From IMG/VR virus record IMGVR_UViG_3300047562_003246, positions 32,001 to 96,000 of that record: a DNA stretch of 64,000 bases; one strand, given 5' to 3'. The stretch is from a virus. Below are positions 1-33,201 of this stretch, in pieces. Position numbers and translations under genes: made by a program. Numbering within the stretch: the stretch's first letter is position 1; the number at the start of each line of letters is the position of its first letter. The notes beneath the pieces were generated by a model. It was given only the letters and a program-made list of their open reading frames with translations, was not told the origin of the DNA and made no database searches.

Positions 1-27
1 AACAGAAATCTATTGAGAGCTTAAAGC

Positions 28-573
28 ATGATACTAGTGGGCCTGAACGGATTTGATTGGTTCCCGTTTTTAATTTCCGGCGATATCAGTCGGTATTTTT
101 CTAAAGAGAATACTGCGTTTCCATATCGCCGGAACTGGAAAAGAAAACACATTGGCTGGGTAATATCTCGGATACCGGCCAAGGAGACTTATTTGCTCGC
201 TGGGTTTTCAGATGGAGGCACTTTAGCTCATGAAGTTGCCAGCATCGATCTTCGCTGCAAAGGTCTGATAGTGCACAGTGGTATGTTCCGCGAGCAGACA
301 ATGCAGTGGCCGAGGAACATACCTATCTTGCTTTTGACAACGAAGGGCGACAAAACACCAACAGTGAGAGAAACGAAAAAGGCACACGATTGGTATGCTA
401 AGCGGGTACAGGATAGCCTGTATTTTCCTGACGGGCCACTAGAATTGCCCGTTAAGGAAAATAACTTTTTGAAACACGAATTCGGTAATGGCTTAGAGGT
501 CATGACTAAGTTCGCCAAAGATACCCTGAATTTTGATTTGCCGATAAAACAACATGCCGAACGAACGAGATAA
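28..573 (+). CDS. alpha/beta hydrolase (phospholipase/carboxylesterase-like)
   Basis: Nucleophile elbow YLLAGFSDGG, followed by a plausible Asp (GDKTP) and His (KHEFG) in catalytic-triad order; 181 aa. Confidence 0.7.
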   Translation: MILVGLNGFDWFPFLISGDISRYFSKENTAFPYRRNWKRKHIGWVISRIPAKETYLLAGFSDGGTLAHEVASIDLRCKGLIVHSGMFREQTMQWPRNIPILLLTTKGDKTPTVRETKKAHDWYAKRVQDSLYFPDGPLELPVKENNFLKHEFGNGLEVMTKFAKDTLNFDLPIKQHAERTR

Positions 574-751
574 TCAGGACGCCTTACTCGATAGGCTTTG
601 CGAGATTTCAGTCGATAGTACTGCCCATATGTCCGACGATGAACGATGGGATTTCTACAAGAAGATGCTTAATCGACTCGACGAAGACGGTTCATCTGTT
701 GATGGCGATTACTATCAAGCTGCTGTAGAGTTGATTCGAGAAATCGGTTAG
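554..751 (+). CDS. small acidic hypothetical protein
   Basis: 65-aa ATG-started ORF overlapping the previous stop and followed by a hairpin. Confidence 0.6.
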   Translation: MPNERDNQDALLDRLCEISVDSTAHMSDDERWDFYKKMLNRLDEDGSSVDGDYYQAAVELIREIG

Positions 752-781
752 TTTTGGCTATCTTAAAAAGAAGTCAGTAAA

Positions 782-808
782 CCGCAAATAATATTTGCGG
801 CGTTTTCT
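782..808 (+). terminator. putative intrinsic terminator
   Basis: 8-bp stem ccgcaaat/atttgcgg followed by a weak U-rich tail cgttttct. Confidence 0.45.
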
Positions 809-835
809 TCTTATTACCATCGGGAGAATAAGCCG

Positions 836-1162
836 ATGAGTGAGTGTGACGAGCGATGGCTAGAAAATCTTCCAGAGGGAAGCTTAGTCATAACGTTTCC
901 GGCCCGTCTACCTACGTTGAACTCGATCTTACACATGAGCAGATCGAGATACTCAAAGGTAAAAAGATTAACAACAAGGTTAATGTTGTTATCGTTAGTT
1001 ACCGACACGAACGAGCCGACGCAGACGGACCTTGCGCAAAAGCATTACTCGATAGTCTCGTACGTCTCGGAGTACTGCCAGATGATAGCCAGGATTGGAT
1101 CGAAGAAATCATCCACGTATCCAAAGAAGTCGAAAAGAAAAAGCCGGAAAAAACGATACTAG
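836..1162 (+). CDS. overlapping ORF carrying a RusA-like N-terminal segment (beta strand + P-x-L-N + helix)
   Basis: ATG with SD gggaga about 8 nt upstream; LVITFPARLPTLNSIL resembles the RusA N-terminus; overlaps 856-1242 in another frame. Confidence 0.5.
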   Translation: MSECDERWLENLPEGSLVITFPARLPTLNSILHMSRSRYSKVKRLTTRLMLLSLVTDTNEPTQTDLAQKHYSIVSYVSEYCQMIARIGSKKSSTYPKKSKRKSRKKRY

Positions 1163-1242
1163 TTTTTTTACCTGCAGATTCGTTTAGTGTCAAAAGGCAA
1201 CTAGGTATTTCGCCTTCAGAAGAAAACGAGCCGCTTGATTAA
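856..1242 (+). CDS. rusA: RusA-like Holliday junction resolvase catalytic core
   Basis: RADADGPCAKALLDSLVRLGVLPDD matches the RusA D-x-D-x3/4-K-x3-D-x-L...G...DD catalytic signature; the N-terminal RusA segment is missing from this frame. Confidence 0.65.
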   Translation: MARKSSRGKLSHNVSGPSTYVELDLTHEQIEILKGKKINNKVNVVIVSYRHERADADGPCAKALLDSLVRLGVLPDDSQDWIEEIIHVSKEVEKKKPEKTILVFLPADSFSVKRQLGISPSEENEPLD

Positions 1243-1276
1243 ACCAAGCTAGTTTGTTACAAGTGAATTTAATGAC

Positions 1277-1310
1277 AAGAAGCTGGGACGCTCCTGGCTT
1301 CTTTTTTTTT
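1277..1310 (+). terminator. intrinsic terminator
   Basis: Stem aagaagctggga/tcctggcttctt (with G-U pairs) followed by T9. Confidence 0.75.
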
Positions 1311-1327
1311 ACCCAAGATGATGAGTT

Positions 1328-1789
1328 ATGGCAGAAAAACAACACAAGAAACCGTGTCACGATTGTCCATTTACGACTAAAGCTGCACCAGGAGAGACCG
1401 GAGGATCTCATCCAGCTGTATACGTGATGCAAACAATTTTGCCTTACAGAATTCCGTGTCACTGTCGTATTGATTATTCGGATCCAAATTGGAAAAAGAA
1501 CGACAGTACGCCAGAATGCGTCGGGCACGCAATTATGCGAGTAAAGCAGGGCGTAGCCGATAAGATGCCAGAGGCGCTATTACGTATTGAGCCTTACGAA
1601 GGCGATCAAGTGTTTAATAACTTGATTGAAATGTTTTGTTATCACACAGGGAGTACTGAAGACGAGGCTAAGGCTTATCTAGAATTAGCCTTACCTCAAA
1701 TGATTATCGAGCAAACATCATCCGAGTCGTTTCGGATCATTGACCAGAACCTTTTAAATAAACTAGACGAAACAAATGACGAACTCTAA
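1328..1789 (+). CDS. Cys/His-rich putative metal-binding phage protein (DUF6283-like)
   Basis: KPCHDCPF...IPCHC...ECVGH pattern; family recognised from memory only. Confidence 0.55.
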   Translation: MAEKQHKKPCHDCPFTTKAAPGETGGSHPAVYVMQTILPYRIPCHCRIDYSDPNWKKNDSTPECVGHAIMRVKQGVADKMPEALLRIEPYEGDQVFNNLIEMFCYHTGSTEDEAKAYLELALPQMIIEQTSSESFRIIDQNLLNKLDETNDEL

Positions 1790-2051
1790 TTCAAACAATG
1801 ATATTAAAAATATCACCATCGGCATCCTGATAGTCTGTGCTGTACTACTTGGCTTCAAAGTGTTTGAGCTTAGTACAGCTAGAGACGGTATGCATCATGT
1901 GATTGATCGGCAGCAGCAGGATCTGGAACGAGCCAACATGATGCTTGACATGGACGAGAACGAGAGATTGATTTTCGATCCAAGAGCTGACAATTGGTCG
2001 AACTTGCCAGTCAATCCTGAACTTGATCCAAGGTACATCAATAATAGATAA
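1776..2051 (+). CDS. single-pass membrane protein with coiled coil
   Basis: Hydrophobic ITIGILIVCAVLLGFKVF followed by a Q/E/R-rich helix. Confidence 0.65.
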   Translation: MTNSNSNNDIKNITIGILIVCAVLLGFKVFELSTARDGMHHVIDRQQQDLERANMMLDMDENERLIFDPRADNWSNLPVNPELDPRYINNR

Positions 2052-2078
2052 GTGAAAGCTTATTTGACTTGAAATTTA

Positions 2079-2120
2079 AAGCTTCCTGAATGATTTCAGG
2101 AAGCTTTTTTTTTTAGCTAT
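2079..2120 (+). terminator. intrinsic terminator ending in T-tract-AGCTAT
   Basis: 12-bp stem aagcttcctgaa/ttcaggaagctt, T10, then AGCTAT (same ending at 7516 and 20039). Confidence 0.8.
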
Positions 2121-2126
2121 CAGTAC

Positions 2127-2162
2127 CTAAATTTTTGCGTTTTTTGTGCCATATAAGTATAG
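2127..2162 (+). promoter_or_regulatory. candidate phage early promoter, copy 1
   Basis: 26/36 ungapped identity to 19213-19248 (CTAAATTTTT-N3-TT-N-TTTG-N2-CCATATA); both copies head islands of small genes. Confidence 0.6.
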
Positions 2163-2255
2163 ATTGCAGTTAGCTATCTTTATTTAAGCGAAAATTAGTA
2201 ACTTTTTTTAAGGAGATGTTATGAAGAAGTAACAAACGATTCGCGCAGAGGACTT

Positions 2256-2323
2256 GAACCAGGAGTGTCGTAATTCACTTGTATGTTTGGCCACGTACAA
2301 ACGACACTCCTGGTTCTTTTATT
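2256..2323 (+). terminator. long hairpin / attenuator-like terminator
   Basis: Perfect 16-bp inverted repeat 2256-2271/2301-2316, inner 8-bp stem, U-rich tail. Confidence 0.65.
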
Positions 2324-2330
2324 AACTTTC

Positions 2331-2371
2331 AGCATGACTAAATCACTGTGATTTGGTGTGCTTTTTTTTTT
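2331..2371 (+). terminator. intrinsic terminator
   Basis: agca..actaaatc/gatttggt..tgct stem followed by T10. Confidence 0.65.
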
Positions 2372-2397
2372 ACTAATTGAAGAAAAGAGAGTTGAAA

Positions 2398-2748
2398 ATG
2401 CAAAAGTTTAGATTACCGATTTTGCTGAGTATTTACTCAGTGCTATTGGTGTTGACAACCCAGCATAGCTGGGTTCATTACCTGTTAATCCTCGACATCG
2501 GCAGCATGTGGCTGCTGGTCAATGTTGTGCGAAAGTCAGTCGTATATCGTCCTGGGAATTTATTTCCCGTTGCACTGGCGTTAGGGACTAACGCGACAGT
2601 GTGCATGTTACCGGATACATGGATGTCGCTGATTTCGGTGGTACTAATTATCCACAGAATAATAACTCAAGTGTCATTGTGGTTATTATTATCTAACAAA
2701 CAGATATTAGAATTTACTGAGTTCGTAGTATCTCAGGAAGATAAGTAG
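2398..2748 (+). CDS. multi-pass membrane protein
   Basis: Four hydrophobic segments; start moved from TTG 2377 to ATG 2398. Confidence 0.6.
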   Translation: MQKFRLPILLSIYSVLLVLTTQHSWVHYLLILDIGSMWLLVNVVRKSVVYRPGNLFPVALALGTNATVCMLPDTWMSLISVVLIIHRIITQVSLWLLLSNKQILEFTEFVVSQEDK

Positions 2749-2781
2749 GTTTTTTTTTTACCTCGAAAAAGGAGGGTGTTT

Positions 2782-3309
2782 ATGTTTAAAGTTGACGACA
2801 TCCTCGCTGAGTACGAGGACAGCTACACAGTCGCCGGAGCGTATGGCGACTACGAAAAGCCTGGGTTCGATATGCAATCGGACCTAGAGCTTGTACAGCT
2901 AGCCAAAGAATGGCTAGCTATGGATGGTTATGCTGACGGACTTGTTGGCATTGATAACACAGCCAAATTAGTTTGGTTGTGTGAAGCGGTGAACTGGGCG
3001 GCAAAAGTCATACGCCCAGAATACTATCTATTGAAACCGCGAATTATCGACGCGGTTGCTAAGTTGCCTGGAGTGCAGTGTGGTTGGGGATATGACGCCT
3101 ATGACAATGGCGTCTTTTACTTGTACCACGTCGAAGCAGGCGTGGCAAGTTTCCATGATCCCGATCGCCAGCTATTTAGCAGTGGCGAATGGCCATACGA
3201 ATGGAGCGGTGTTCTTAGACAAGAACACGCTCTTGATGTCTGGGTAGGAAATGTAGATCTGGCTAAAGATCTGGCAAGAAGATCTCAACCAGGAATGATG
3301 GAATATTAG
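2782..3309 (+). CDS. hypothetical protein
   Basis: Strong SD aaggagg, ATG at 2782, protein-like composition. Confidence 0.75.
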   Translation: MFKVDDILAEYEDSYTVAGAYGDYEKPGFDMQSDLELVQLAKEWLAMDGYADGLVGIDNTAKLVWLCEAVNWAAKVIRPEYYLLKPRIIDAVAKLPGVQCGWGYDAYDNGVFYLYHVEAGVASFHDPDRQLFSSGEWPYEWSGVLRQEHALDVWVGNVDLAKDLARRSQPGMMEY

Positions 3310-3358
3310 ATTTTTTTTTACTCTGCTGTCACACGTAGACGCGGGGTGTTTTTTTTTA

Positions 3359-3480
3359 GACACCGCTCGCCTGTTGGTTGGCGTGTGGTTTGTTGAGTCT
3401 ATGCAGCCCGACTATTAAAGGGTTCTGTGTATAGGCTTGCAGCAAACCTATCCACGTAGGTTCGATTCCTACCGGTGTCT
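3359..3480 (+). ncRNA. tRNA-like RNA (tRNA-Cys-like) with insertions
   Basis: 7-bp acceptor GACACCG/CGGTGTC, D-arm cgcc-tgttggtt-ggcg, stem ATAGG/CCTAT, canonical T-arm GTAGG-TTCGATT-CCTAC, U discriminator; about 46 extra nt after the D-arm, 11-nt anticodon loop, no encoded CCA. Confidence 0.55.
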
Positions 3481-3586
3481 TTTTTAGGTTGCGTGACAGA
3501 CTTAATTTTCAAATTAAAACCGCGTACTTCAGGTTTCATAGTCCTGGGTGTCACTACGCATTCTTCGAGTTGGAGAACAAACTACT

Positions 3587-4429
3587 ATGAGTACACAAGT
3601 ACAAGTTTTGTTGGCTATTAACGTCGATTTGGCTAGCACTGTAAACGCTCAAATCACAATCGAAGCGGAGTATGGGTCGACCACGATTAATGGCAGTCGA
3701 TACACTGCCGCCCACCATGGGGCTAACTGTGAAAATCCAGCTCCATGTTTAGATGCAGGGCTGGATGATATTGCTGAAGACGGTGACACCGTTTTGGTAA
3801 GTCATCTCGACTTAGACACGATCGGAGGGATTGCCCGAGCAATTGGTCATCCAATCGCGGATCATCAAGGTTTTTGGAAATTGTCAGCCTATGTGGATGT
3901 GAATGGTCCGCATAAGTTGGGTCAGTCCGGTGCTGAACAGGAGGATGTTGATCGATTGTATGCTTACTGGGCTTGGGCTCAGAGCAATCGTGGACCACGT
4001 CGTGAAAATGACCAGATCCACGATGTAACTTCGGAGGTGGCGACCCACCTCAATGTTATCCATGAAATTCTGCGTGGGGACGCAGGATTACTCAAGGCAG
4101 GTCAAGAGTTCAAGGAGGCGGGAGAGCGACTCAACGAAGAGTCGTTCGTAGAGGTGCACGCTGGAACGATTGTGCGGGTAGGACCCGCATTCGTGAATCA
4201 TATCTACACGACGCCTCAGGGTGAAGTGTGTAAAGCAGTCGTCAGCTTCAACACGAAAACAGGGAGTATTACCCTGTCTTTTGCGGACAAGGAAGATGGC
4301 AGAAACGCTGCGAAAATTATGCAAGAAGCATTCGGACCAGATGCCGGTGGGCACGCTGGAATCGCTGGTAGCCCTAGAGGTACCAGGATGAAATTGGCAG
4401 ATCTAGCAACGTTGCTAGCTTTGCTGTAA
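3587..4429 (+). CDS. DHH/DHHA1-like phosphoesterase-related phage protein
   Basis: SHLDLDTIGG (H-x-D-x-D) motif and C-terminal GGHAGIAGSP (GGH) motif; SD ggaga before ATG 3587. Confidence 0.55.
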   Translation: MSTQVQVLLAINVDLASTVNAQITIEAEYGSTTINGSRYTAAHHGANCENPAPCLDAGLDDIAEDGDTVLVSHLDLDTIGGIARAIGHPIADHQGFWKLSAYVDVNGPHKLGQSGAEQEDVDRLYAYWAWAQSNRGPRRENDQIHDVTSEVATHLNVIHEILRGDAGLLKAGQEFKEAGERLNEESFVEVHAGTIVRVGPAFVNHIYTTPQGEVCKAVVSFNTKTGSITLSFADKEDGRNAAKIMQEAFGPDAGGHAGIAGSPRGTRMKLADLATLLALL

Positions 4430-4441
4430 TTTTTTTTTTGT

Positions 4442-4490
4442 CGGTTACTTGACTTTCAGGTCACATCGAGTTCGCGACTCGAAGTAACCG
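4442..4490 (+). other. intergenic three-way-junction RNA structure
   Basis: Closing stem cggttactt/aagtaaccg enclosing hairpins tgac/gtca and tcgagt/actcga; lies just after T10. Confidence 0.5.
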
Positions 4491-4827
4491 TTTGTGTAAA
4501 GGTTAACTTAATTTCTTTTTGTTGAGGTTGAGATGTTAGATAGAAATACTTGCGTGTTGAACAGAGGAATCTTGGCGATCAAATAATGGGATGACGCCGT
4601 ATTTAACGTAACACTTAGTTACGTTAGCAACTATATGGTTGTTATTCGGTACGAAGATAACGATGAGATTCGCGTAGTCCTATAAAAATGGGTGAGAGAT
4701 AGCCTTATTGGTATTACGAAAGATACCGAAGACTGTCTCATTGTAGGCAGTAACGGCATCACTGTTGCGATGCCGTGTACTCTGCGAACATACTTAGTTA
4801 AATAAATTAACAAGTACGTTAATTCAT

Positions 4828-4861
4828 ATCGCACTTCAAATTTGAGGTGCGATTTTTTTTT
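4828..4861 (+). terminator. intrinsic terminator
   Basis: 12-bp stem atcgcacttcaa/ttgaggtgcgat followed by a T tract. Confidence 0.75.
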
Positions 4862-4890
4862 AACTATTACTTTTTTTTTTGAGTCGAAAA

Positions 4891-5379
4891 ATGATTTGCA
4901 GAAACACTTTAAATGATGTTGTCGGAAAATGGGCGGCTAAGAGCGTCGTATTAGCAGTATTAGCTGAGAGTGGAAAGTACGATCACACTATTAGTCTGAT
5001 CGTAAGAAGGTTCGTTCAAAAATTCGATTTGGACGGATACCAAATAACTAGTCTATCTGATGCAATCGATAAGTTATTTGAAAGACTTCAAGTTTGCTCA
5101 GATGAGCTATTAGACATCGATGTCGGACTGCGTCATCGTGTCAGACAAGACTTGCTCGAACAAGAGACTATCAACTTGTTGTTGGACGAGCCAAAATTTT
5201 TGTTGTCAGAAAATTTTGATGAATTCACGTTAAAAATCTACCAGCGATATGAATTTATACGTTGGAAGATTTACTGTTACCATCAAAGAAGGAACCCCGA
5301 TTCCAGTGAAGGGATCAAAGAACTTGTTGTAAAACTACGTCGCATAAATGAAAATATTACTCAAGTCTACGGCGGCTAA
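4891..5379 (+). CDS. hypothetical helical protein
   Basis: ORF 4879-5379; first ATG at 4891. Confidence 0.65.
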   Translation: MICRNTLNDVVGKWAAKSVVLAVLAESGKYDHTISLIVRRFVQKFDLDGYQITSLSDAIDKLFERLQVCSDELLDIDVGLRHRVRQDLLEQETINLLLDEPKFLLSENFDEFTLKIYQRYEFIRWKIYCYHQRRNPDSSEGIKELVVKLRRINENITQVYGG

Positions 5380-5656
5380 TTTCGAGCCGTTGTACGAAGG
5401 TCAGCTTATACCTGTGCCAGACAGTTATAAGCATTGCGTGGAAGAGTCAGAGCATGGATTCTTTATGCGGATCCAGCATGACCACTTTCTTGATAGTTCT
5501 ACGCATGGAAAGCTGCTAGTTAGGGACTTACGATATCGCGGCGCGATGTCGGCGAAAGTTAATAACTACGATAAAAACAACCCTCCAAAATTTTTGAGGG
5601 TGTTGAGGCTATCTAGATCAGGCAAGTCTGTGATTACGGAAGCTGTTACGGAGTAG
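5348..5656 (+). CDS. hypothetical protein
   Basis: 102-aa ORF overlapping the previous stop. Confidence 0.6.
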   Translation: MKILLKSTAANFEPLYEGQLIPVPDSYKHCVEESEHGFFMRIQHDHFLDSSTHGKLLVRDLRYRGAMSAKVNNYDKNNPPKFLRVLRLSRSGKSVITEAVTE

Positions 5657-5703
5657 TAGCTTTTTTTTTAGTATTTAATCTAGTTTGTTGAGTGAAAAAA
5701 AAA

Positions 5704-6702
5704 ATGACGTACGAAAATATCATTGAAAAGTTTTTTTACGCTGAAGCTCCAAATAGAAATGTTTCGAAAAGTGTGCAGTTTGAAGCAATTTCTGACGCTA
5801 TCATTGGAACGAAACAATTACGGTACGGACCTAGGCCGTCACCTGAAGATCAGGTCGAGATTCGTAAAGTTATCCAACATGCATTGGATAAAGAGGTACC
5901 ACTGGTAATCTTTTTACCGTGGGCCTGCAGGAAACAGGACTCTAGCGACTTAGATGTGTTGGAGTTTATGGCAATTAAACAATTGCGTAATCTGCAGGAA
6001 ACGCTAAGTAGCTTCGACCTGCAAGTCACGTATCAGTTTAGGGTCGAAGATGCTAGCGATAGTGTTTTGTTTGATGACTATGATCATGAACGATCCATGA
6101 TTAGTTCGCAGACTGCAAGGTATCGCGAGACGTTCAGGCAACTAGTAAGTTGTTTGCTTCGAGCAAGCATCGTACGAACAGAGCTTCAGAAAACGACACT
6201 GAAGACTTTCGTAGAAGCAGTAGAGGATAACAAACCACTAGTCAGAGATATGCTAAGTGGTGTCTCTACTCGACAAGACTTGATTGCTTTTGCTCCAGAG
6301 CAGAAGCAATATTTCGATGATCTCTACGAAAAACTGTATCCGTCTGAGTCTTCTTCTGAGAGGCGAGAAAGGTTAGTTACTTATTTTTCTTGCGTCTTTG
6401 CAAGGAGACAACTCAACGCGGTCTGTAGGCCAGACTATCCTCACCTCTTTGCGACTTTCAGTCACCCAGTACCGGGTGACCCTGTCAGAGATAGTCGGCT
6501 TTATTACAGAACCATGCCCGAGCGAGTCACAAACACGCATCGAGCACCGTGGTTGAGTCGCGGCTATTTCTTGATCGATGATCGAGAGAATACGGCAACG
6601 CCAAGATTTAGAGATGAACTGCAGCATGATACAGAATTGCACAGAGGTGCAATTACTTATCAGAACATCGAGTTTTGTGCTGACTATTTGATCAAAGATT
6701 AG
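5704..6702 (+). CDS. PvcA/Dit1 (isocyanide synthase)-like protein
   Basis: PLVIFLPWACRK..D.LE..A..QL..L...VED resembles the PvcA P.h..LPaFP.K..PD..E..AL..L..L...SDG block; C-terminal TFSH...RAPW resembles LSIH...TPWH. Confidence 0.45.
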   Translation: MTYENIIEKFFYAEAPNRNVSKSVQFEAISDAIIGTKQLRYGPRPSPEDQVEIRKVIQHALDKEVPLVIFLPWACRKQDSSDLDVLEFMAIKQLRNLQETLSSFDLQVTYQFRVEDASDSVLFDDYDHERSMISSQTARYRETFRQLVSCLLRASIVRTELQKTTLKTFVEAVEDNKPLVRDMLSGVSTRQDLIAFAPEQKQYFDDLYEKLYPSESSSERRERLVTYFSCVFARRQLNAVCRPDYPHLFATFSHPVPGDPVRDSRLYYRTMPERVTNTHRAPWLSRGYFLIDDRENTATPRFRDELQHDTELHRGAITYQNIEFCADYLIKD

Positions 6703-6730
6703 TTATTAGTAACTAGTCTTTGCTTTTCCT

Positions 6731-6764
6731 AAAAGCTGCGTAGATTTCTACCCAGCTTTTTTTT
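6731..6764 (+). terminator. intrinsic terminator
   Basis: aaaagctg/cagctttt stem followed by T8. Confidence 0.65.
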
Positions 6765-6784
6765 AAGTATTCAAGGAGAACATT

Positions 6785-7162
6785 ATGGGTTTCACGACAT
6801 GTAACGGTTATTCTCGCAGAGACTTAATCATACACTTGATGTCTGATAGTCCGCAGGATAAGTACATCGCTATCAACAAGTACACAAGTGGTAACGACTT
6901 ATGGGTCGTCATGCAAAGGCGTGATGCGCAGGATCCTACAAACGCCGATAGATACATCAGGCTGTATAGATTACAGCGAACTAAGGATGGCTGGGGCTAC
7001 AGCGACTATGCAGAAGCAGATTGTCCTTACGTATTTAGCTGTCCGTTGATTTTTCTGGACATTACTTTTCACCAAAACACCGATTGGCGAAAAGGGGTAA
7101 GAGAGTATTGGAAAGCCCGTAAGGAAGCGATGACTACTCGTAGAAAAAGTTCGCCTAGTTGA
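6785..7162 (+). CDS. conserved phage hypothetical protein (DUF6927-like)
   Basis: WGYSDYAEADCPYVFSCPL...WRKGVR pattern; SD aaggag; contains 14-mer copy 1. Confidence 0.65.
   Translation: MGFTTCNGYSRRDLIIHLMSDSPQDKYIAINKYTSGNDLWVVMQRRDAQDPTNADRYIRLYRLQRTKDGWGYSDYAEADCPYVFSCPLIFLDITFHQNTDWRKGVREYWKARKEAMTTRRKSSPS
6926..6939 (+). repeat. dispersed 14-mer GCGCAGGATCCTAC, copy 1
   Basis: Exact match; encodes AQDPT. Confidence 0.95.
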
Positions 7163-7228
7163 CTGGCTGAGCTTGTCGTGCTTTGATGGTAGCTGTGTGT
7201 TGTTTCTTCTTGGCTTTTGGAGTTTGAA

Positions 7229-7432
7229 ATGATTGCAGTACCAGTTAGCATTTCCGAAATTGTTGGTTTGACATTTGAGCAGGCTAAACAGTGGGCGACT
7301 GAGCACAGTTACAGGGTAGTTCCGTCAAGCATTGACGGAGAAGCGACTGTTCTTACGCAGGAATTCGATCCGACGCGGATACAGGTTGCTTTGGTCGATG
7401 GTAAAATCAAGGAAGTAACCAATATCGGTTAG
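7229..7432 (+). CDS. I78 / potato-I-like serine protease inhibitor
   Basis: IVGLT..QA...G..TVLTQEFDPTRIQV...G.I..V..G matches the I78/I13 pattern (T-x-D/E-F-x-P-x-R, terminal G); SD ggag. Confidence 0.65.
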   Translation: MIAVPVSISEIVGLTFEQAKQWATEHSYRVVPSSIDGEATVLTQEFDPTRIQVALVDGKIKEVTNIG

Positions 7433-7473
7433 TGCCTATAAAAGTTAGGCATTCCTACGGCGCTGGTGGGCCG

Positions 7474-7521
7474 AAAGAAGGACGAGTTAAGAAATACTTG
7501 TCCTTCTTTTTTTTTAGCTAT
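7474..7521 (+). terminator. intrinsic terminator ending in T-tract-AGCTAT
   Basis: 14-bp stem aaagaaggacgagt/acttgtccttcttt, T9, AGCTAT. Confidence 0.8.
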
Positions 7522-7586
7522 TAGAGCTTTTGCGTGATTTTGGTAAATTGAGTTAGGGTTTGCTTACAACACAGAAGGACTGAACA

Positions 7587-8036
7587 ATGCCAGATCCAAT
7601 CGCCATATCTGCTGACGGTACCACCGCTTCGCTTTCGCTTGATCTAATTACGCCTTACAAATTGAGCCTTCGAGGCACAACACTGGACGCAGGTATCGAA
7701 GTTGTCTTTGAATACGCAGACATTGGACAGACGAACTGGAGACCGCTTTTTGTTGGTCCTGAGGCAGATGATCCGAGAGTTAAGTTAAACAGCAAATTTC
7801 AGGATATCTTGATCAGCGGTGATTGCCTGCTCAGGGCAGTGATTACTGGTTACGGAACAAGTAACACGGTAACGTTGACTGCCAAAGCACTGCAAGAAGT
7901 TACCAATGAGCGAATTGAAACAGCGGTGCAGGAAGTGCTTGACATGCTTGGTGTACTTCGAGAGGGTGTTGAGTATGAATGGACGAACTCAGACAACAAC
8001 GCGTCGGACTTGGTGACTATTACGCGTCCTATTTAG
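7587..8036 (+). CDS. putative virion beta-sandwich protein
   Basis: 149 aa, beta-rich, first gene of the structural block. Confidence 0.6.
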   Translation: MPDPIAISADGTTASLSLDLITPYKLSLRGTTLDAGIEVVFEYADIGQTNWRPLFVGPEADDPRVKLNSKFQDILISGDCLLRAVITGYGTSNTVTLTAKALQEVTNERIETAVQEVLDMLGVLREGVEYEWTNSDNNASDLVTITRPI

Positions 8037-8044
8037 GATGATTT

Positions 8045-8500
8045 ATGTCGGCAGTATTTTTGTTAGCGTTCCCTGAGCAGGATAACGTCGGAGTCTTCTC
8101 CGATGCGTTTCCTGTCTCTGCGCCGCCTCCTGTGTTATTGGCTGCTGCGCTGAATATTCTGCGAGATAGGCTTGTACTGAGTTTCAGCGAAGTAGTTACA
8201 GGAAACACAGTTCCAGTGCTGACATTCTCAGGCGGCGCAGTTACGGCGACATTTGCAAACATTGTCGGAGATACGGTCAGGTTTACCTTAAGTCGCACGA
8301 TTGCCGAAAACGAAACAGGTAGTTTGACGCTCAGCGCAGGATCCTACACTTCGGCTTCTTCAGGGGAGACTAACTCGGCAGCTGCGCTTAGCATCGCAGT
8401 ACCTACGGCGAGAATGAATGCAGACAGGGGTCTGGTGAATTCTCTGTTTCGTAGCCGCATTGTTGAGAGTATTACGGGCGATATTGTAGAGCTAAACTGA
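8045..8500 (+). CDS. Ig-like putative virion protein
   Basis: LVLSFSEVV...TVRFTLSR...LTLSAGSYT Ig-like strand pattern; contains 14-mer copy 2. Confidence 0.55.
   Translation: MSAVFLLAFPEQDNVGVFSDAFPVSAPPPVLLAAALNILRDRLVLSFSEVVTGNTVPVLTFSGGAVTATFANIVGDTVRFTLSRTIAENETGSLTLSAGSYTSASSGETNSAAALSIAVPTARMNADRGLVNSLFRSRIVESITGDIVELN
8334..8347 (+). repeat. dispersed 14-mer, copy 2
   Basis: Exact match; different frame, encodes SAGSY. Confidence 0.95.
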
Positions 8501-8528
8501 AGCTACAGGCTATATTAAATGCTCTTCG

Positions 8529-8557
8529 AGGCGGCTGGTAACCTAGCCGCCTTTTTT
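8529..8557 (+). terminator. intrinsic terminator
   Basis: aggcggct/agccgcct stem followed by T6. Confidence 0.75.
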
Positions 8558-8637
8558 GTTTGTATTCGAGTCTATCTTACGGCTTGTAGAATAGCTATAG
8601 AAGTTTGCGAACGTTAAGCCCTGAATAACAAGCATTT

Positions 8638-9267
8638 ATGAACTATACCGAGATAGCCGTAGCTTTAATAGCGATCGTAGGCAACATTATCGTTGGTTTC
8701 TTTGTTTGGATGACCCGAAGCGGCGCATCAAGAGATAGACAACTTACGAATTTTTACAATCAGCTATTGGTTGAGTGCCAGTCACTAAGAACCTGCAACA
8801 TGGAGCTGCAGAACAAGCTTGCTTCCGTATCTGTTCGCATGAATGATCTGCAAGCTCAGTTGCAATTTTACGAAGACAATACGTTACTTACAGAGTCCAG
8901 GGATATGCTTGCGAACATCTTCGAGAAGTTCGTTGACGCAGCAGCTTGGATTCATGACGTGTCGTCAAACAAGTGGTATCTCAATGAAAAATACTGCGTA
9001 ACGTTTCATGTCAAACGGGTGTCATTTTGGACTCCTGTGAACATTCTCGGTCAGTATGATGCAGCCGACGTAATCGACTACATGAAGAACGATCTGGCAG
9101 TCATCGAAACCGGCACCATGATGGAGTGTGTCGAACGAGTGCGTGTACGTATCATGGATCCGCACTGCGACGACTATATGCACTACAAGATTCGTAAGAC
9201 GCCGTTTTTCATCAACAATCGACCTTACATTGTCGGTTCAGTAGTTGCTCAGGTTCATTCACCTTAA
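8638..9267 (+). CDS. membrane-anchored coiled-coil PAS-domain protein without output domain
   Basis: N-terminal TM helix, heptad region, then AAWIHD..WYLNEKY..ND..VIETG..E..RKTP..IVG typical of PAS_4-like folds. Confidence 0.65.
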   Translation: MNYTEIAVALIAIVGNIIVGFFVWMTRSGASRDRQLTNFYNQLLVECQSLRTCNMELQNKLASVSVRMNDLQAQLQFYEDNTLLTESRDMLANIFEKFVDAAAWIHDVSSNKWYLNEKYCVTFHVKRVSFWTPVNILGQYDAADVIDYMKNDLAVIETGTMMECVERVRVRIMDPHCDDYMHYKIRKTPFFINNRPYIVGSVVAQVHSP

Positions 9268-9282
9268 TTGTAAATACGAAAA

Positions 9283-11787
9283 ATGCTTACTGGTACTAAA
9301 CACTGTTCGTTGTGTACGACGATTAATTACGCGAGTTTGAAGCGTAAAATGGGAGTTGTCGTTCCTTCTAACCTTAAGCAACTCCTCTTCCACGACAACA
9401 ACGTAGCCCAACCCGCCTACTACACTCCCCAGGAACTAACAGGCAGCGGACTACCTCACGATGCGTTCCTGAAAGACTACAGCCTTGGTAAAGGCTCTCT
9501 ACGTCCTAAGCGTCAAGGGTACTGCTACAACTTCGATGGGGTGAATGACTATGTAAATCTTGGAGATGTGACTTTTCTAGACGGTTTGGCCAAGTTTTCA
9601 ATTTCTGCTTGGTTTTACTACGATGGGCAAAGCAACCAGAAAGCTATACTTTCAAAAGGTAGTTACTTTATACTAAATCAATGGTTTTTTGGTTTCACGC
9701 ATTCAGGGCAAAATAGATTTGGATATTCGGTAGGTCAAAGATACAAATATCAAAACATTACCGGTATGTCGCATGGCTGGAAACACGTTGTACTTACCTA
9801 TGACTCAGTAAATAGCTTAGATGGAATTTACATTAACAATGCAATATTATCGGGTGAAGGTATAATACAAGGAGGTAACTATCTACCAACCGTAAATAAT
9901 GGTGAAATACTATGTATCGGATCAGTAACTCAGTCCAACGGTGCTACTGTAACATCTTATTTCGACGGCAAACTCTCTGACGTTCGCATCTACAACGACG
10001 CCCTCACCCCCGACGAAGTGACTTACCTATACACTGGCGGACAATCGGGGATTAATCCTGGTAGAGCCAACCTCGTAGCTCACTATCCACTTCAAGAAGA
10101 ATCCGGCCCCAGAGCCTACGATACCAGCGGCAACGGACACCACGGCACCATCATGAACGCTACCACTTCAGGTGTTGGTAGTATCCATGTTGTCGATGAG
10201 GGTGTACCCAAGAGTTATCTGAATGATGAAGGGTACAGTGTAGCATTTACCAAAGACGATACGTTTATTACTAATGTATCTGGGATAGATAACACAATTA
10301 GTTTTAATATAAAAATCGCTGATACAGACACTGTTGGTATAGCTTTAACTAATTCAAGTATTAACGCTTTTCTATTTTGTTGGCAGCAAAATGGTACAGG
10401 GGTTGTTAATGTATCTTCAGGCTCGCCAACGGTCTTAGTTGATGGTGTTAATTTCACAGGAAATCGAGGAGATTTATTCAACATACTTGCAGATCAAGAG
10501 TTTCATGTCGTAGAAATAATGGGTGCGGATTTTACAGCAAATTGGGTTTCTGGATTGTACTTTGGAGGTTATCCATCATCGCCGTATGAGTTACTTGCTG
10601 GAACCGTAATGACCAACCTCTTAATCAACGGAGTTGCTTATTCAGGTCCAACTATCATCCCCGCAGCTTCTACTACCCAGGACGCTCTCGGTGGCACGCT
10701 CACCTACACCGGAGAAGCACCACTACCAGGACTTGCTAAAGGTTACGCTTGGCAGGGTGACGGGACTAGTATCGAGGTGGACTTGGGATCACCGATTATT
10801 CCGACAACTGCTGATTTTGAACTTGAGTTTTGGTATCAACACAAAGATACAGGAACGACAAAAAAAGGAGTTTTTCAACAGTTAAATAACCCTGACAATT
10901 GTGCAGTAATAGCTAACAACGGAATCGCTAATGCACTACAATTATATATTGACTTTGCAGATGCTACTTCTGCTGTCAATATAACCACTGCTGCCGCTGG
11001 AGCATTAGTAGAGAATGTTTGGTATCGTATAAATATTCAAAGGGAAGGTTCCGCGTTTGTACTTAGTGTGTACGAAGTTAGTGGTAGTTTGTGGTTTACC
11101 GGAACTCAAACAAGATCCATAAGTTCTGCTATATCTATTGTTTCTAACACTCGATTATTGCGGTATTTATCTGATTATGGGCCGTTTGCAGTCGGTCCAG
11201 TCTCCATAACCACCGGCGGAGTCACCACAACCTATAGTCCAGTACCAGGAACTCGCAACGTAGCAGTCACCAAGTCCGATGGAACCTACTCGGTAATCAA
11301 TAATGCAGTCGTCAACGGTACTCTAGCCAATCTCTACACACTCGGTAACGGATCATGGAGACTACCAGAGATTGAGAATGGTGCTCATTGGGATGGAACG
11401 GCTTTGTATCCTGCCTCCCCAGGAGCCGAGGTAGCGGCAAACGGTGAAGCAATCAACGTACCAGCTAACAAGCATCCTCGAAGCGTACTGGTAGATCGTA
11501 CTGGTGCTGTCATCATTCCACTTGATACAGCAATGGGTACGGATGAACTCACAGCGGAAGCGTTTGACACTAACTCACTTGTAATTACAGATATGCAAGC
11601 ATCTAAACGGTTTGCTGGGGACTATTACTCGGATCGTTACGGTGCTGCATTAGTAACAATTGATGATTTAGAATTTTTTGGTGAAAACCCAATACTTCAA
11701 TTCGCACTCGTCGATAGAGACGGAGCCTACATTTTAGACCGCGATGGTGCCTATATCATTGCCGACCCAACACCAAGGACTAGCTAA
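9283..11787 (+). CDS. tail-associated LamG/ConA-like lectin-domain protein
   Basis: YNFDGVNDYV, FSISAWF, WKHVVLTY, YFDGKLSDVRIYNDALT LamG motifs; the true start may be ATG 9349. Confidence 0.75.
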   Translation: MLTGTKHCSLCTTINYASLKRKMGVVVPSNLKQLLFHDNNVAQPAYYTPQELTGSGLPHDAFLKDYSLGKGSLRPKRQGYCYNFDGVNDYVNLGDVTFLDGLAKFSISAWFYYDGQSNQKAILSKGSYFILNQWFFGFTHSGQNRFGYSVGQRYKYQNITGMSHGWKHVVLTYDSVNSLDGIYINNAILSGEGIIQGGNYLPTVNNGEILCIGSVTQSNGATVTSYFDGKLSDVRIYNDALTPDEVTYLYTGGQSGINPGRANLVAHYPLQEESGPRAYDTSGNGHHGTIMNATTSGVGSIHVVDEGVPKSYLNDEGYSVAFTKDDTFITNVSGIDNTISFNIKIADTDTVGIALTNSSINAFLFCWQQNGTGVVNVSSGSPTVLVDGVNFTGNRGDLFNILADQEFHVVEIMGADFTANWVSGLYFGGYPSSPYELLAGTVMTNLLINGVAYSGPTIIPAASTTQDALGGTLTYTGEAPLPGLAKGYAWQGDGTSIEVDLGSPIIPTTADFELEFWYQHKDTGTTKKGVFQQLNNPDNCAVIANNGIANALQLYIDFADATSAVNITTAAAGALVENVWYRINIQREGSAFVLSVYEVSGSLWFTGTQTRSISSAISIVSNTRLLRYLSDYGPFAVGPVSITTGGVTTTYSPVPGTRNVAVTKSDGTYSVINNAVVNGTLANLYTLGNGSWRLPEIENGAHWDGTALYPASPGAEVAANGEAINVPANKHPRSVLVDRTGAVIIPLDTAMGTDELTAEAFDTNSLVITDMQASKRFAGDYYSDRYGAALVTIDDLEFFGENPILQFALVDRDGAYILDRDGAYIIADPTPRTS

Positions 11788-12945
11788 ATGACGACTCGAA
11801 ATATCTACGAATTGGCTCAGACGTGGAACAACGGTGCTGTTGATTTCACGGCTATCAAGATGAACGTGACCGACACGGCAAGTGCGGCAACAAGCAAGTT
11901 GTTGGATTTGCAGGTTGGTGGGAGTAGCAAGGAGTCCACGGATAAAAACGGAAACAAGACACTGGCTGGTGCTATCATATTGAAATCTGGTGCTTCAATT
12001 CCTATCACTGGTGCCAATGTTTCAATTACCGCTACTGATGCTAGAGAGTTGACATTTGGTAGGGACAGTAGTACAGCTAGAATGCTTTTTGATCTCGATG
12101 GCACAGGGGGGATCAAAATTGGGAACACGAGCTCTTATGCTTGGTCTAGCACCACGCTTTCTACTAGTGTATCCGATTTGTTTCTTGTGCGAGACGCCGC
12201 TAATATTCTTGCTCTTCGCAACTCCACAAACCCCCAAGCCTTCAACATCTACAACACGTTCACCGACGCATCGAATTATGAGCGTGGGTGCATTAAGTGG
12301 TCTAGTAATCGGTTTGAAATCAAGAGTGAAGTGTTAGGGACGGGAACAGCTCGCCCGCATAGATTTTATTTGCATTCAAATCAGGAATCTTGGATAGAGG
12401 ACACAAATGCAAGCGGTGGTGGCTACAGAATTGCTATTCGTAATAGGTATGGGCATTCATTTAATTTTGGACCTATTCTATCTTCGCCTGTACCGATTTC
12501 ACTAGGTGATGTTGCGTATGTACCTCTTATTCATTTTGGGATACGTGGTTCAAGACCAACAGGAGCATTGAACGCGAATGTTGTTGCTGGCGACCTTCAT
12601 TTGTGTGGTAAATATGGTGGAAATTATGCTATCTCTACAAGCTATCATAGAGGTACAGGTATAACAGCTTGGTGTGGATACGGAGCAACACCTACAGATA
12701 CGGATGGCGATGGAGGCGATGCTGGGAACTTTGATATTTGGTTGAATGCCGGTGGTGCAGGTAATGGTAGCGGAGACGCAGGTGCAGATGGTCGATTTCG
12801 TATCATTAACGATGATACTGACTCAGAAGTATTTGCTATAGATAAATCTGGCAACGTATATGCCGCTAATTTACCCACATCTGACCCAGCGGTGGTCGGC
12901 CAAATATGGAATGATTTAGGGACTCTCAAAATTTCAGCAGGTTAA
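11788..12945 (+). CDS. tail fibre / receptor-binding protein A
   Basis: G/S/T/A-rich beta protein; C-terminus NLPTSDPAVVGQIWNDLGTLKISAG shared with 14479-16905. Confidence 0.65.
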   Translation: MTTRNIYELAQTWNNGAVDFTAIKMNVTDTASAATSKLLDLQVGGSSKESTDKNGNKTLAGAIILKSGASIPITGANVSITATDARELTFGRDSSTARMLFDLDGTGGIKIGNTSSYAWSSTTLSTSVSDLFLVRDAANILALRNSTNPQAFNIYNTFTDASNYERGCIKWSSNRFEIKSEVLGTGTARPHRFYLHSNQESWIEDTNASGGGYRIAIRNRYGHSFNFGPILSSPVPISLGDVAYVPLIHFGIRGSRPTGALNANVVAGDLHLCGKYGGNYAISTSYHRGTGITAWCGYGATPTDTDGDGGDAGNFDIWLNAGGAGNGSGDAGADGRFRIINDDTDSEVFAIDKSGNVYAANLPTSDPAVVGQIWNDLGTLKISAG

Positions 12946-12948
12946 CAA

Positions 12949-13326
12949 ATGAGCATTTTCAACATCCAAGACAACGGACCCACAGCACAACAACTTGCTG
13001 ATGGGTTTCTCAAAGAAGCCGATCTCAAAGCTGACCAAAACGTCCAAGAGATATACGACGGAATCCAACGGTTCTGGTACAGAAACAAGGACGCCGACGG
13101 CAATGGAGTGCTGGAAGGTGACGAGCCAACAGGCATCGAAACCTTGCAAGCAATGGGCACTCGGGCAGAGGCATTCCTAACAGTTGCTTATGCCAGAGTG
13201 CAGATGATCGTGACTATTCAAACCGCTTTGGGTGTGGAGCTTATCGACTTGTCGAAAGCCTCGGCACCTTACGATTTCACATTTAATCCAGACGGAAGTT
13301 TGAACACATGGACTCTCAAGAACTAA
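12949..13326 (+). CDS. putative fibre-associated chaperone A
   Basis: Directly follows fibre A; similar to 16981-17346 (W.N...E..QA.GT.A..F). Confidence 0.5.
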   Translation: MSIFNIQDNGPTAQQLADGFLKEADLKADQNVQEIYDGIQRFWYRNKDADGNGVLEGDEPTGIETLQAMGTRAEAFLTVAYARVQMIVTIQTALGVELIDLSKASAPYDFTFNPDGSLNTWTLKN

Positions 13327-30950: not shown

Positions 30951-33201
30951 CACTTCGTTGCCTCCAAGTCGATCGGTAGCGCTTGCCAGATTTAATACTG
31001 ACAAGCATTACTTTACCGACCAGCAAATTCGCCGACAGCAAGCTATTGCTTTACAGCCTGCGATGCAGCAAGCAGCAATGCAGGCTCAGCAAAATTTAGC
31101 TGACCCTACGTCGCAGCAGCAAGGTAAATCTCAAAAGCCAAAACAGCAAACGGCTGAATCTCAATTCAAAAATGTTCCAAAGGTGCCGCAAGCTTTGAAG
31201 CCGCCCACGGTCCCAGGTCAAGGTTCTGTTCCTGGAGGCTCTTTAGGTTTACTACCTAAAAACGCTACTGGTAGTTTTTTAGGAGATTACGGGCACTACA
31301 TCAATAAGTTCTACAATCCATGGAGTGAGGCATGGAAAGAAGAGTCTAATGATGGAATTGAGACAGGGCTTAAATATACGGGCCGGGGTGCTATGGCAGT
31401 GGGTACAACTGCTGCGGCACTTGCTGGCGGTTTAGGTCTCGCAGGTATCGGAACAACAACTGCCATCGGTGGCACTGGTGGAGCAGCCGGAACAGGTACA
31501 GGTTTACTCGGAGGAACACTTGGTATGGGTCGCGGATTTTCAACTCTTGGCAATTTATTTAGTCGCGGCTCTAATTTCATAAGAGGATTTGGTGGCAACG
31601 CTACTAAAGCAGCCAAACCTCCAGGGGCTACCGGAGGTGCTTGGGATACAGCTGGTAAAGTTTGGAATTGGGCAGACCGAGCCATGACGGCTGACTATCT
31701 AGGCTCACTTGTTACTGGCAGTAGTCCGATCGAAAGCGGGCTTAGCATGTTTGGTTTTGGCTCGGGTTCTAATCAAGCAGGCGGTGTAGGTCCTTCCGGT
31801 CCTGCTGATCCTTACAGTCAGTACGATAACACTCCGAATCCTTCGAGTATGTGGAATCAAAGTGGTTACGGTCCACCACCTGCGTACGGAAGGTATAATC
31901 CCGATAACTGGTCAAACTTACCTTCTAACCGTTTTTCGTCTGCGTTACCAACAAAAACTGCGAGCGTTGTTATGCAAAATATTCCTGTAATTCTTCCTGT
32001 GACGCAGAAGATTGCTTCGGAGCTACGTGCTGAAGTTATTTCGCCGATGCCGATTCTTTTTTTACTCGATAAAGAAGCAGCAAGGTTAAGAGGAACCGGT
32101 AGATCTGGCAGACGCGGAAGAGGGGCGAACCCTAATAACAATCGTGGTGTAGGTAATACACTCAGGGCTCCTGCGGCTCCAGCTGTAAGCGCGAGTCCAA
32201 GTACTTATCTCACTGATTCACAGTTGTTGCCCAGGGGTTATTCCTTTGGACAATCCCGACTAACTAGATCTGGTGCAAGTTCTAAAACCGTACCAAGAGA
32301 TATGGTAGATTTGGATAACGTTGATCCAAACGACATACACACTCCTGCTTTTACGTCGTCAACATTGACTTCTGGAGGTTCAAGAACTCCTGGTTCAGGA
32401 CAATCTACGGCGTCTCCGCCAGGTACTAGAAGTGGACAAGGAACTAGCACTGGTGGCGGTCAAAGTACTGGTGGCGGTGGCGGTGGTCAAAGTACTGGTG
32501 GCGGTGGCGGTGGTCAAAGTACTGGTGGCGGTGGCGGCGGTCAAAGCACTGGTGGTGGCAGTCAAAGCACTGGTGGTGGCAGTCAAAGCACTGGTGGTGG
32601 CAGTCAAAGCACTGGTGGTGGCAGTCAAAGCACTGGTGGTGGCAGTCAAAGCACTGGTGGCAGCGGTAACCAAGGTAGTCGCAATACTAGAAATAATTCG
32701 CCTACACCTATACCAGCGGATCCTGCGATGGACCGAGCAAAAATGCTCGGAGGTATTGGGGCTGGTGCAGTAGGCGGTGCGTTACTTAGCTCATATTTCG
32801 GCGGCGGTGGCGATGCTTATGATGAGAATATTCAGGTAGCTGGACCCGATGGTAGACCTGTGCCGATTTCTTATTACACAAAGAGCACAGGGTCAGTGTT
32901 CTCTCCTTCGTCCTGGGGAAAGACACAATACGAAAAGGATAAAGAAGTTATGGATGCAGCCAGAAGATTAGGCTGGGTTCCACCTACTCAATATGGACAG
33001 CAAGGTGAATATTACGGTGGCGGCAGCTTCGGTGGCGGTACTAGACTTCCGACCAGTCTTTACAGTATGACTCGCTGGCCAGATCCTCGACATTATCGTG
33101 ATATGGTTTTGAATAATCGAGGCGGTGTACAACCGATTCAACAGCCTCAACCAATCGCACAACCCGCGAACACTGCAGGATTTCAAAATACACTGATATG
33201 A
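30913..33201 (+). CDS. Gly/Gln/Ser-rich low-complexity putative internal head protein
   Basis: 762 aa; KTAS/KIAS/KEAA motifs; Gly-rich tandem repeat; the start may be downstream of 30913. Confidence 0.65.
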   Translation: MNQPQAHQYYRDSTSLPPSRSVALARFNTDKHYFTDQQIRRQQAIALQPAMQQAAMQAQQNLADPTSQQQGKSQKPKQQTAESQFKNVPKVPQALKPPTVPGQGSVPGGSLGLLPKNATGSFLGDYGHYINKFYNPWSEAWKEESNDGIETGLKYTGRGAMAVGTTAAALAGGLGLAGIGTTTAIGGTGGAAGTGTGLLGGTLGMGRGFSTLGNLFSRGSNFIRGFGGNATKAAKPPGATGGAWDTAGKVWNWADRAMTADYLGSLVTGSSPIESGLSMFGFGSGSNQAGGVGPSGPADPYSQYDNTPNPSSMWNQSGYGPPPAYGRYNPDNWSNLPSNRFSSALPTKTASVVMQNIPVILPVTQKIASELRAEVISPMPILFLLDKEAARLRGTGRSGRRGRGANPNNNRGVGNTLRAPAAPAVSASPSTYLTDSQLLPRGYSFGQSRLTRSGASSKTVPRDMVDLDNVDPNDIHTPAFTSSTLTSGGSRTPGSGQSTASPPGTRSGQGTSTGGGQSTGGGGGGQSTGGGGGGQSTGGGGGGQSTGGGSQSTGGGSQSTGGGSQSTGGGSQSTGGGSQSTGGSGNQGSRNTRNNSPTPIPADPAMDRAKMLGGIGAGAVGGALLSSYFGGGGDAYDENIQVAGPDGRPVPISYYTKSTGSVFSPSSWGKTQYEKDKEVMDAARRLGWVPPTQYGQQGEYYGGGSFGGGTRLPTSLYSMTRWPDPRHYRDMVLNNRGGVQPIQQPQPIAQPANTAGFQNTLI
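32446..32664 (+). repeat. coding minisatellite: 3x27 nt (STGGGGGGQ) + 5x21 nt (STGGGSQ)
   Basis: 27-mers at 32464-32544, identical 21-mers agcactggtggtggcagtcaa at 32545-32649, partial units on both flanks. Confidence 0.95.

Follow-up and report, generated by a model that had tools for sequence, protein, structure and literature searches.

Two open reading frames (ORFs), A and B, share most of the bases of a short locus in a 185-kb virus. Our comparison of this locus with its relatives establishes that both frames are conserved as open frames with start codons, that selection alternates between them, and that frame B encodes a RusA-like catalytic core. The interpretation towards which we lean, without regarding it as settled, is that two co-translated polypeptides jointly build a RusA-like nuclease; there is no protein or ribosome-profiling evidence for either of them. 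The whole evidence base is computational, and the AF2 models and the models of the complex are predictions. All coordinates are those of the window, that is, the whole stretch of 64,000 nt that was analysed (IMG/VR record IMGVR_UViG_3300047562_003246, positions 32,001 to 96,000).

Results

Two overlapping ORFs and their flanks

The two ORFs and the terminator-like elements on either side of them are as follows:

ATG 836 to TAG 1160-1162, + strand: ORF A, 108 aa, with WLENLPEGS, a strand, a P-x-x-N motif, helix 1, a predicted helix 2 and a basic tail.
ATG 856 to TAA 1240-1242, + strand: ORF B, 128 aa, with an unconstrained basic leader followed by the RusA-like core.
782-810, + strand: terminator-like hairpin and T-run (stem 782-800 of 8 pairs, then CGTTTTCTTC), 3' of the upstream gene.
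1277-1313, + strand: terminator-like hairpin and T-run (12-pair stem 1277-1303, then TTTTTTTACC), 3' of the locus.

ORF B is in the -1 frame relative to ORF A, and the overlap extends over 307 nt (856-1162). The coordinates and frames that the original prediction had given for these two ATG-started ORFs were reproduced, and every peptide quoted in it was found as written; the good SD that it claimed for frame A is present as GGGAG at 822-826, 9 nt 5' of the ATG. The third + frame is riddled with stops across the locus. The overlap by itself is not beyond chance in the window, as neighboring alternative-frame ORFs reach 96-112 aa. The hairpin at 782-810 insulates the 5' side of the locus, and the presence of terminator-like hairpins at both flanks suggests that the two-frame locus may be its own transcription unit.

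Long ORFs are found exclusively on the + strand in window positions 1-13000. Very little of the 185-kb virus is covered by known families, and a PHROG scan of ten ORFs near the locus left eight without a match and assigned the other two only to families of unknown function. The downstream ORF at 1328-1789 (153 aa), which is Cys/His-rich near its N-terminus (CHDCPF...CHCRIDY), matches phrog_5443 and phrog_31541, the function of both being unknown.

A RusA-like catalytic core in frame B

964-1176, + strand: RusA-like catalytic core, frame B residues ~37-107, made up of one strand, one helix and two further strands.

On the basis of PHROG matches, profile alignment by hhalign and fold match, frame B residues ~37-107 are a RusA-like catalytic core. 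The core residues aligned to RusA are R50, D55 (1018-1020), D57, K62 (1039-1041), D66 (1051-1053) and D76-D77 (1081-1086), and the columns of the D-x-D...K...D...DD pattern, invariant or nearly so across the frame B family, correspond to D70, D72, K76, D80 and D90-D91 of E. coli RusA. Residues 31-98 of frame B match the RusA-like PHROG families phrog_1682 (7e-8) and phrog_34 (3e-4), and RusA-like PHROG families also match 24 of the 33 members of the frame B family. A profile built from 125 frame B relatives aligns with residues 57-119 of the E. coli RusA profile in hhalign (probability 92.7, E = 4e-7). The AF2 model of the B protein from one family member, L012, has a pLDDT of 90-96 over the core; RusA occupies the top four ranks in a Foldseek search with this model, and its comparison with RusA (PDB 1q8r, residues 44-117) by VIA gives Z = 6.7 and an rmsd of 3.5 Å over 73 aligned residues, against Z = 4.2 for the best unrelated chain. 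Of the HMM and Foldseek comparisons of frame B with RusA, which had been proposed together with the original prediction, those with PHROG and hhalign profiles and with the fold of the L012 model are positive.

Because the L012 model superposes on RusA 44-117, frame B has no counterpart of RusA 1-43. Residues 1-36 of the B protein in the window form an unconstrained basic leader without an N-terminal motif. A conserved N-terminal helix motif (AF2 helix H11-21) is present in the B proteins of the main group of related loci.

The Pfam RusA model remained below threshold for frame A, for frame B, for a read-through fusion of the two and for the whole virus record in six frames; over the 33 B members it matches a single one, with E = 0.21. 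No match to A, B or the read-through fusion was found with Pfam plus NCBIfam, and PDB sequence searches with single sequences and with profiles were also without a match. Likewise, neither tblastn of the B protein of the window nor megablast of the start of the window gave a match among phages, and a search for related loci using B alone found none.

The two-frame layout in related loci

An exhaustive phmmer search with B returned 271 cluster representatives, and searches with the N-terminus of frame A brought 10 viral and 51 metagenomic loci. In the two loci closest to the window (L002 and L003), the counterpart of frame A is likewise open, and its first ~48 residues are conserved more than the B residues that those bases encode; for the window compared with L003, identity over this part is ~56-60% in A and ~37% in B. 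A motif scan identified an A ORF of ~100-118 codons together with a B ORF of ~120-145 codons in 45/45 distinct loci, and the same A and B ORFs are present in nine loci missed by the motif scan, L069 (GenBank BK063671.1), L070 and L071. All of the ~55 related viral and metagenomic loci that were fetched, drawn from many metagenomes and a broad range of G+C, have the two-frame layout, with the N-terminal module and the core never in one frame. The combination of N-terminal strand 1, PPSxN and helix 1 with the core in one polypeptide was found in 0 of the ~55 loci and in 0/125 family proteins. The recurrence of the same layout in every one of the ~55 loci shows that it is a selected design, not a broken gene.

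The stop of A precedes that of B by 5-59 nt in complete typical loci and by 80 nt in the window, L070 and L016 being exceptions. The distance from the Asn of the frame A motif to the first of the catalytic Asp residues in the core is constant in 42/45 loci, including L002, which was counted by eye after the regex missed it. The top conserved feature of frame B upstream of the core, 'vP..NVEp' (B residues ~14-22 in the window, nt 895-921), does not belong to B as a motif but results when frame A LPTWNR (CTN CCN ACN TGG AAY CGN) is read in the -1 frame. Among the 125 frame B proteins from the exhaustive search, 105 have [VLMI]E at the expected distance 5' of the core, which is the shadow of (W/L)-N in frame A, and none has P-x-W-N in the frame of the core itself. 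Protein-level family building from called ORFs would misread the 'vP..NVEp' shadow, and this should serve as a warning for pipelines.

L070 (160-945) has a frame B of 261 aa, in which a Cys/His-rich N-terminal domain is joined to the front of the RusA-like core, and ~35 additional codons separate the helix of frame A from the strand of B; its frame A carries the tail motif SYLDLIRPRKK upstream of the B core and stops inside the core. The family is widespread: the nearest-fold Atlas clusters have 605, 118 and 60 members, nearly all of them viral 'hypothetical proteins', in addition to one RusA cluster.

Selection in the two frames

We analysed selection in 34 loci of <88% nucleotide identity, using a gap-free alignment anchored on the Asn codon (N29), from which codons are numbered. 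The stretches that it delimits in the window are:

857-985, + strand: A-selected stretch, A residues 8-50, in which the wobble position is A3.
964-985, + strand: junction zone with both frames constrained, of low entropy in all three phases (codons +15 to +21).
1019-1102, + strand: frame A tail helix, wholly within the B core, with T62, V77, Y80, I84 and S89 constrained beyond the needs of B.

From codon -14 to codon +21, A3 is the most variable position and frame A is conserved among the 34 loci; from codon +22 onward, A2 (the same base as B3) is the most variable and frame B is conserved. The selected frame therefore changes sharply, from A to B, at window nt ~983-988. The junction zone encodes the end of helix 1 in frame A (consensus RDLTDKLV, RLTTRLM in the window) and, in frame B, a loop and the start of a strand (consensus RFDGQVD, KINNKVN in the window). 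According to the original prediction, a helix of A and a strand of B use the same bases over 964-1008; the double use holds for ~964-985, where both are constrained, and not for the remainder, as A is selected only to ~985. The 'LLSLV' of A (986-1000) is the shadow, in the +1 reading, of the GTN-rich strand of B. In the main group, ~13 codons after the A ATG are B-selected again, with the B motif DLPERYQxQ..QL.

Frame A is free of stops for ~57 codons past the switch in every locus, with per-locus P values of 0.02-0.2 under synonymous resampling of B; the summed log10 P is -39 with pooled codon usage and -47 with within-gene shuffling. Over the same region the third frame has 1-13 stops. Frame B, for its part, has no stop through the A-selected stretch in 34/34 loci, compared with ~1.1 expected in each (summed log10 P = -18 or -16). 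The summed P values treat the loci as independent and are somewhat overstated for that reason, though their direction is not in doubt. Interruption of frame A by stops in homologs would have refuted the original prediction; in all ~55 loci both frames are open, and several synonymous sites of B are fixed, which is the reduced synonymous variation that had been proposed as a check. The locus has the sequence features of an overlapping gene pair (both frames open beyond chance, a start codon for each, and amino-acid selection in both). A dual-coding locus, as had been inferred at the outset, with amino-acid-constrained parts in each frame is supported at the level of sequence comparison. The other possibility raised there, regulation of B by A, is neither favored nor ruled out by these data.

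The AF2 model of the A protein of the window (pLDDT 73.7) has helices at residues 36-58 and 63-88, and frame A ends in a basic Lys/Ser/Arg tail. Frame A conservation relative to synonymous resampling of B is highest at Y80 (+51; z = 28), followed by I84 (+55; z = 15), T62 (+33; z = 11), V77 (+48; z = 10) and S89 (z = 5.7), and a control frame in the same resampling reaches z of at most 5. V77, Y80 and I84 are spaced i, i+3, i+7 on the predicted second helix. The V/I/L codon of B at +51 nearly always ends in A, which gives a frame A Tyr in 31/34 loci, and the Asp of B at +55 is nearly always encoded by GAT, which gives a frame A Ile, also in 31/34 loci. Judged from these aligned codons, the tail of frame A is more than a shadow of B, with site-specific constraint at synonymous positions of B.

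Start codons of the two frames

Both ORFs have start codons, which are ~20 nt apart in different frames and mostly accompanied by SD-like motifs; in homologous loci an SD precedes whichever start comes first. The leading start in the main group is the B ATG, which has an SD, and the A ATG is mostly located 19 nt downstream within the B codons [ND][DE] (xAT GAx). Codons 2-3 of main-group B (ARR GGN) provide AGGA/GGGG 8-14 nt before the A ATG in ~14/19 loci. The M-[KR]-G-I codons of B can thus be seen to double as an SD-like motif for A in this group, e.g., at L007 408-470 and L012 1122-1180. The order is reversed in the subgroup of the window, with A first behind an SD and B 20 nt later, and in 5/5 of its loci an A at the wobble position before the TGG of frame A makes the B ATG. 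No recognisable SD precedes the B ATG in the window.

The N-terminal module of frame A and the predicted complex

The N-terminus of frame A consists of WLENLPEGS, the strand LVITFP, the P-x-x-N motif LPTLN (N29 at nt 920-922) and helix 1. With hhalign, a profile of the frame A N-terminus gives one alignment with RusA, in register, with P = 0.048 (VITFPARLPTLNSILHMS = SITLPWP-PSNNRYYRHN), and in some family members frame A reads ELPVPPPTTNRV against TLPWPPSNNRY of RusA. Pfam and PHROG have no match to frame A, hhalign of full-length A with RusA yields no alignment, and a search with A for homologous proteins found none. An ESM Atlas feature search with A 1-58 gave nothing usable, and Foldseek with the A model of the window retrieved only generic helical hairpins from the PDB. 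The strand-P-x-x-N-helix of frame A is only marginally similar to the RusA N-terminus, that is, at the motif level and without significant homology. Of the RusA-like N-terminus originally proposed for frame A, the in-register match of motifs survives; homology is not shown, in the absence of HMM matches. FPARLPTWN in an Anaerolineales MAG, encountered in a scan of genome contigs, is a chance occurrence with no family gene behind it.

Prediction of a complex between B 34-112 and A 1-54 gave a score of 0.50, compared with 0.00 for the best of three controls, which is rated as 'weak support'. The mark for this score is reached by 58/80 solved complexes and by 2/110 mismatched pairs. Passes with a score of 0.60 or less comprise just 7 of the 80 solved complexes, together with both passing mismatches. 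At least 95% of contacts are common to the runs, and the partner has a pLDDT of at least 68. The pass may reflect the likeness of the halves of the split fold to solved RusA structures. Co-folding of A and B, another check proposed with the original prediction, has thus given a weak pass and no demonstration of binding.

Discussion

Two polypeptides or one

Two chains are the simplest account of the locus, and the data require translation of both ORFs. Ribosomes would load at one initiation region that offers a start codon for each frame, the two being separated by ~20 nt, and this shared region would couple the synthesis of A and B. Protein A would supply the strand, the P-x-x-N loop and helix 1, which are the N-terminal elements of RusA, in addition to a second helix and a basic tail; protein B would supply the catalytic core, a strand-helix-strand-strand unit with D-x-D...K...D...DD. 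The two proteins could then assemble into a RusA-like metal-dependent junction endonuclease, which may serve phage recombination or genome maturation. Three elements of this account are inferred: the accumulation of both proteins, the binding of A to B and the cutting of junctions by the complex.

Several points speak against a nuclease of two chains: the N-terminal helix of main-group B might replace helix 1 and make B self-sufficient, the B ATG of the window has no recognisable SD, the homology between the N-terminus of A and RusA is not significant, and the prediction of the complex is a weak pass. It is conceivable, though in our view quite unlikely, that a divergent RusA-like gene has been overprinted by a separate gene, frame A, so that B works without A and uses its own N-terminal motif where one is present, A having an unrelated role, e.g., as a regulator or a DNA-binding helical protein. 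Such an origin would be consistent with the lack of a significant match of A to any family, with the predicted structure of A alone, a helical hairpin whose PDB matches are merely generic hairpins, with the conserved N-terminal helix owned by main-group B and with the fact that overlapping genes are co-inherited regardless of interaction. It is not easily reconciled, however, with the absence from B of a counterpart of RusA 1-43, nor with the B of the window, which has just its unconstrained basic leader in place of an N-terminal motif. Moreover, the strand, P-[ST]-x-N and helix of A follow each other in the right order, the sole hhalign alignment of A is in the register of the RusA N-terminus, and the complex score (0.50 against 0.00 for the best control) lends weak support to an interaction. 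A RusA gene broken by a one-base indel, as a pseudogene or through an assembly error, can hardly be entertained: a single locus with the halves of a fold in two frames does resemble a frameshift mutation, but this explanation is refuted by the comparative data, since ~55 loci that were assembled independently, with ~25% to ~83% amino-acid identity, share one and the same frame structure, and since both frames are kept open and the start codons are conserved.

955-967, + strand: slippery-looking bases TC A_AAG GT A_AAA_AGA, not conserved and upstream of the switch.

We also consider it unlikely, if still worth serious attention, that a programmed -1 frameshift fuses the N-terminus of frame A to the core of frame B in one chain, possibly beside unshifted A; the fusion would probably be additional to the two separate products. 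The most plausible site for the shift would be the Lys codons within the conserved R-K-K (window 955-967); the junction (~983-988) is the alternative. A fusion would explain the clean switch of selection from A to B and would agree with known RusA proteins, which carry both parts in one chain; a perfect in-phase A_AAA_AAR is found at codon +11 in 10/34 loci (A_AAR in about half), and the constraint on B starts at +15, just past this site. Strict X_XXY_YYZ heptamers between +5 and +26 are, however, restricted to 10/34 loci, all at +11, and absent from 24/34, none of the 34 loci has a slippery heptamer at the junction (codons +18 to +22), and C_AAG occurs in L002, L003, L004 and L049. In addition, conservation stays with frame A for nine codons past R-K-K, and RNAalifold on the 34 sequences (codons +13 to +50) found 0 conserved pairs. 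Without a heptamer at the junction, with A conserved past R-K-K and without RNA structure, the bases at 955-967 of the window do not qualify as a conserved signal. A fusion would also leave unexplained why frame A is open and site-constrained for ~57 codons further, why B stays open upstream and has an ATG and, in the main group only, an SD, and why main-group B has a conserved N-terminal motif. A fusion read through near nt 957 scored no better against RusA models than B alone, and its PHROG match did not extend into the N-terminus of frame A. We reject a canonical frameshift at GTA AAA AGA (958-967), which is unconserved and lies within the part where frame A is still selected. The original prediction had named this site as possible and held that a single -1 shift could not give the full fold. 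An occasional slip at 955-967 cannot be excluded.

Highly improbable, in our judgment, is a ribosome that stitches one RusA chain from the two frames without canonical slippery sites, by a +1 shift and then a -1 shift. In the main group, selection acts in turn on frame B (N-terminal motif), frame A (strand-PxxN-helix) and frame B (core), with only 2-7 doubly constrained codons at each junction, and this B-A-B order is the expectation for a single polypeptide made by two such shifts; in the subgroup of the window the second shift alone would be needed. If double recoding were true, it would be a new kind of recoding.

Comparison with known systems

We know of no split RusA, and the characterised RusA proteins of which we are aware are all single chains. 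The E. coli Holliday junction resolvase RusA (Pfam PF05866; PDB 1q8r, 2h8c, 2h8e), which cleaves its substrate as a dimer, has the catalytic residue pattern and the core fold that are found in frame B, and at the motif level frame A opens, as RusA does, with a strand, P-[ST]-x-N and a helix. Unlike RusA, which is one chain of 120 aa, the locus splits these parts between two overlapping frames, with shared bases encoding the last part of helix 1 in one frame and the beginning of the following strand in the other. Frame A also has an additional helix and a basic tail, and neither frame reaches the threshold of the Pfam RusA model.

In the lambda Rz/Rz1 spanin, one gene is embedded in another frame of its partner, and the products are thought to act as one complex. 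The locus is similar in having two phage proteins encoded in different frames of the same DNA, an overlap that guarantees co-inheritance and co-expression. Rz and Rz1, however, are two separate folds in two membranes, whereas A and B are apparently complementary pieces of one small enzyme fold, encoded with an overlap of ~300 nt of ~400 and with starts ~20 nt apart. Programmed -1 frameshifting is known from dnaX (tau/gamma), the phage tail chaperone G/GT and IS3 transposases. As in those genes, the second frame here is -1, and some members of the family have A_AAA_AAR; unlike in those genes, the junction lacks any conserved slippery site or stimulator, the zero frame continues long past the junction and is still selected, and the -1 frame is also open 5' of the junction, where it has a start of its own.

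A frameshift site in IS1222 has been described (PMC10885494); the remark on a 'RusA/RuvC' frameshift in the same paper rests on a 1991 ruvC paper and was set aside. No description of a split, frameshifted or dual-coded RusA was found in the literature searched, and we have not seen such an arrangement described for RusA or for other resolvases. If the two-protein reading is true, a single stretch of ~400 bases encodes, in frames that overlap, the two polypeptides from which a small single-domain nuclease fold is made. The ~55 aligned examples constitute a natural test case for the sharing of constraint in a long dual-coding region.

Gene callers pick one frame only, which is B in most metagenome records and A in BK063671.1, and with one frame called per locus half of the system is invisible in current annotation. 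In BK063671.1 (L069 2492-2779; Caudoviricetes sp. vir555, host given as Methanomicrobiales), only frame A is annotated, as a hypothetical protein of 95 aa; the overlapping RusA-like ORF of frame B is unannotated, and a DNA primase gene lies directly upstream. In L071, the gene immediately upstream of the two-frame locus (55-399) matches Pfam RecA_dep_nuc (PF16786), which indicates a recombination context in at least one virus.
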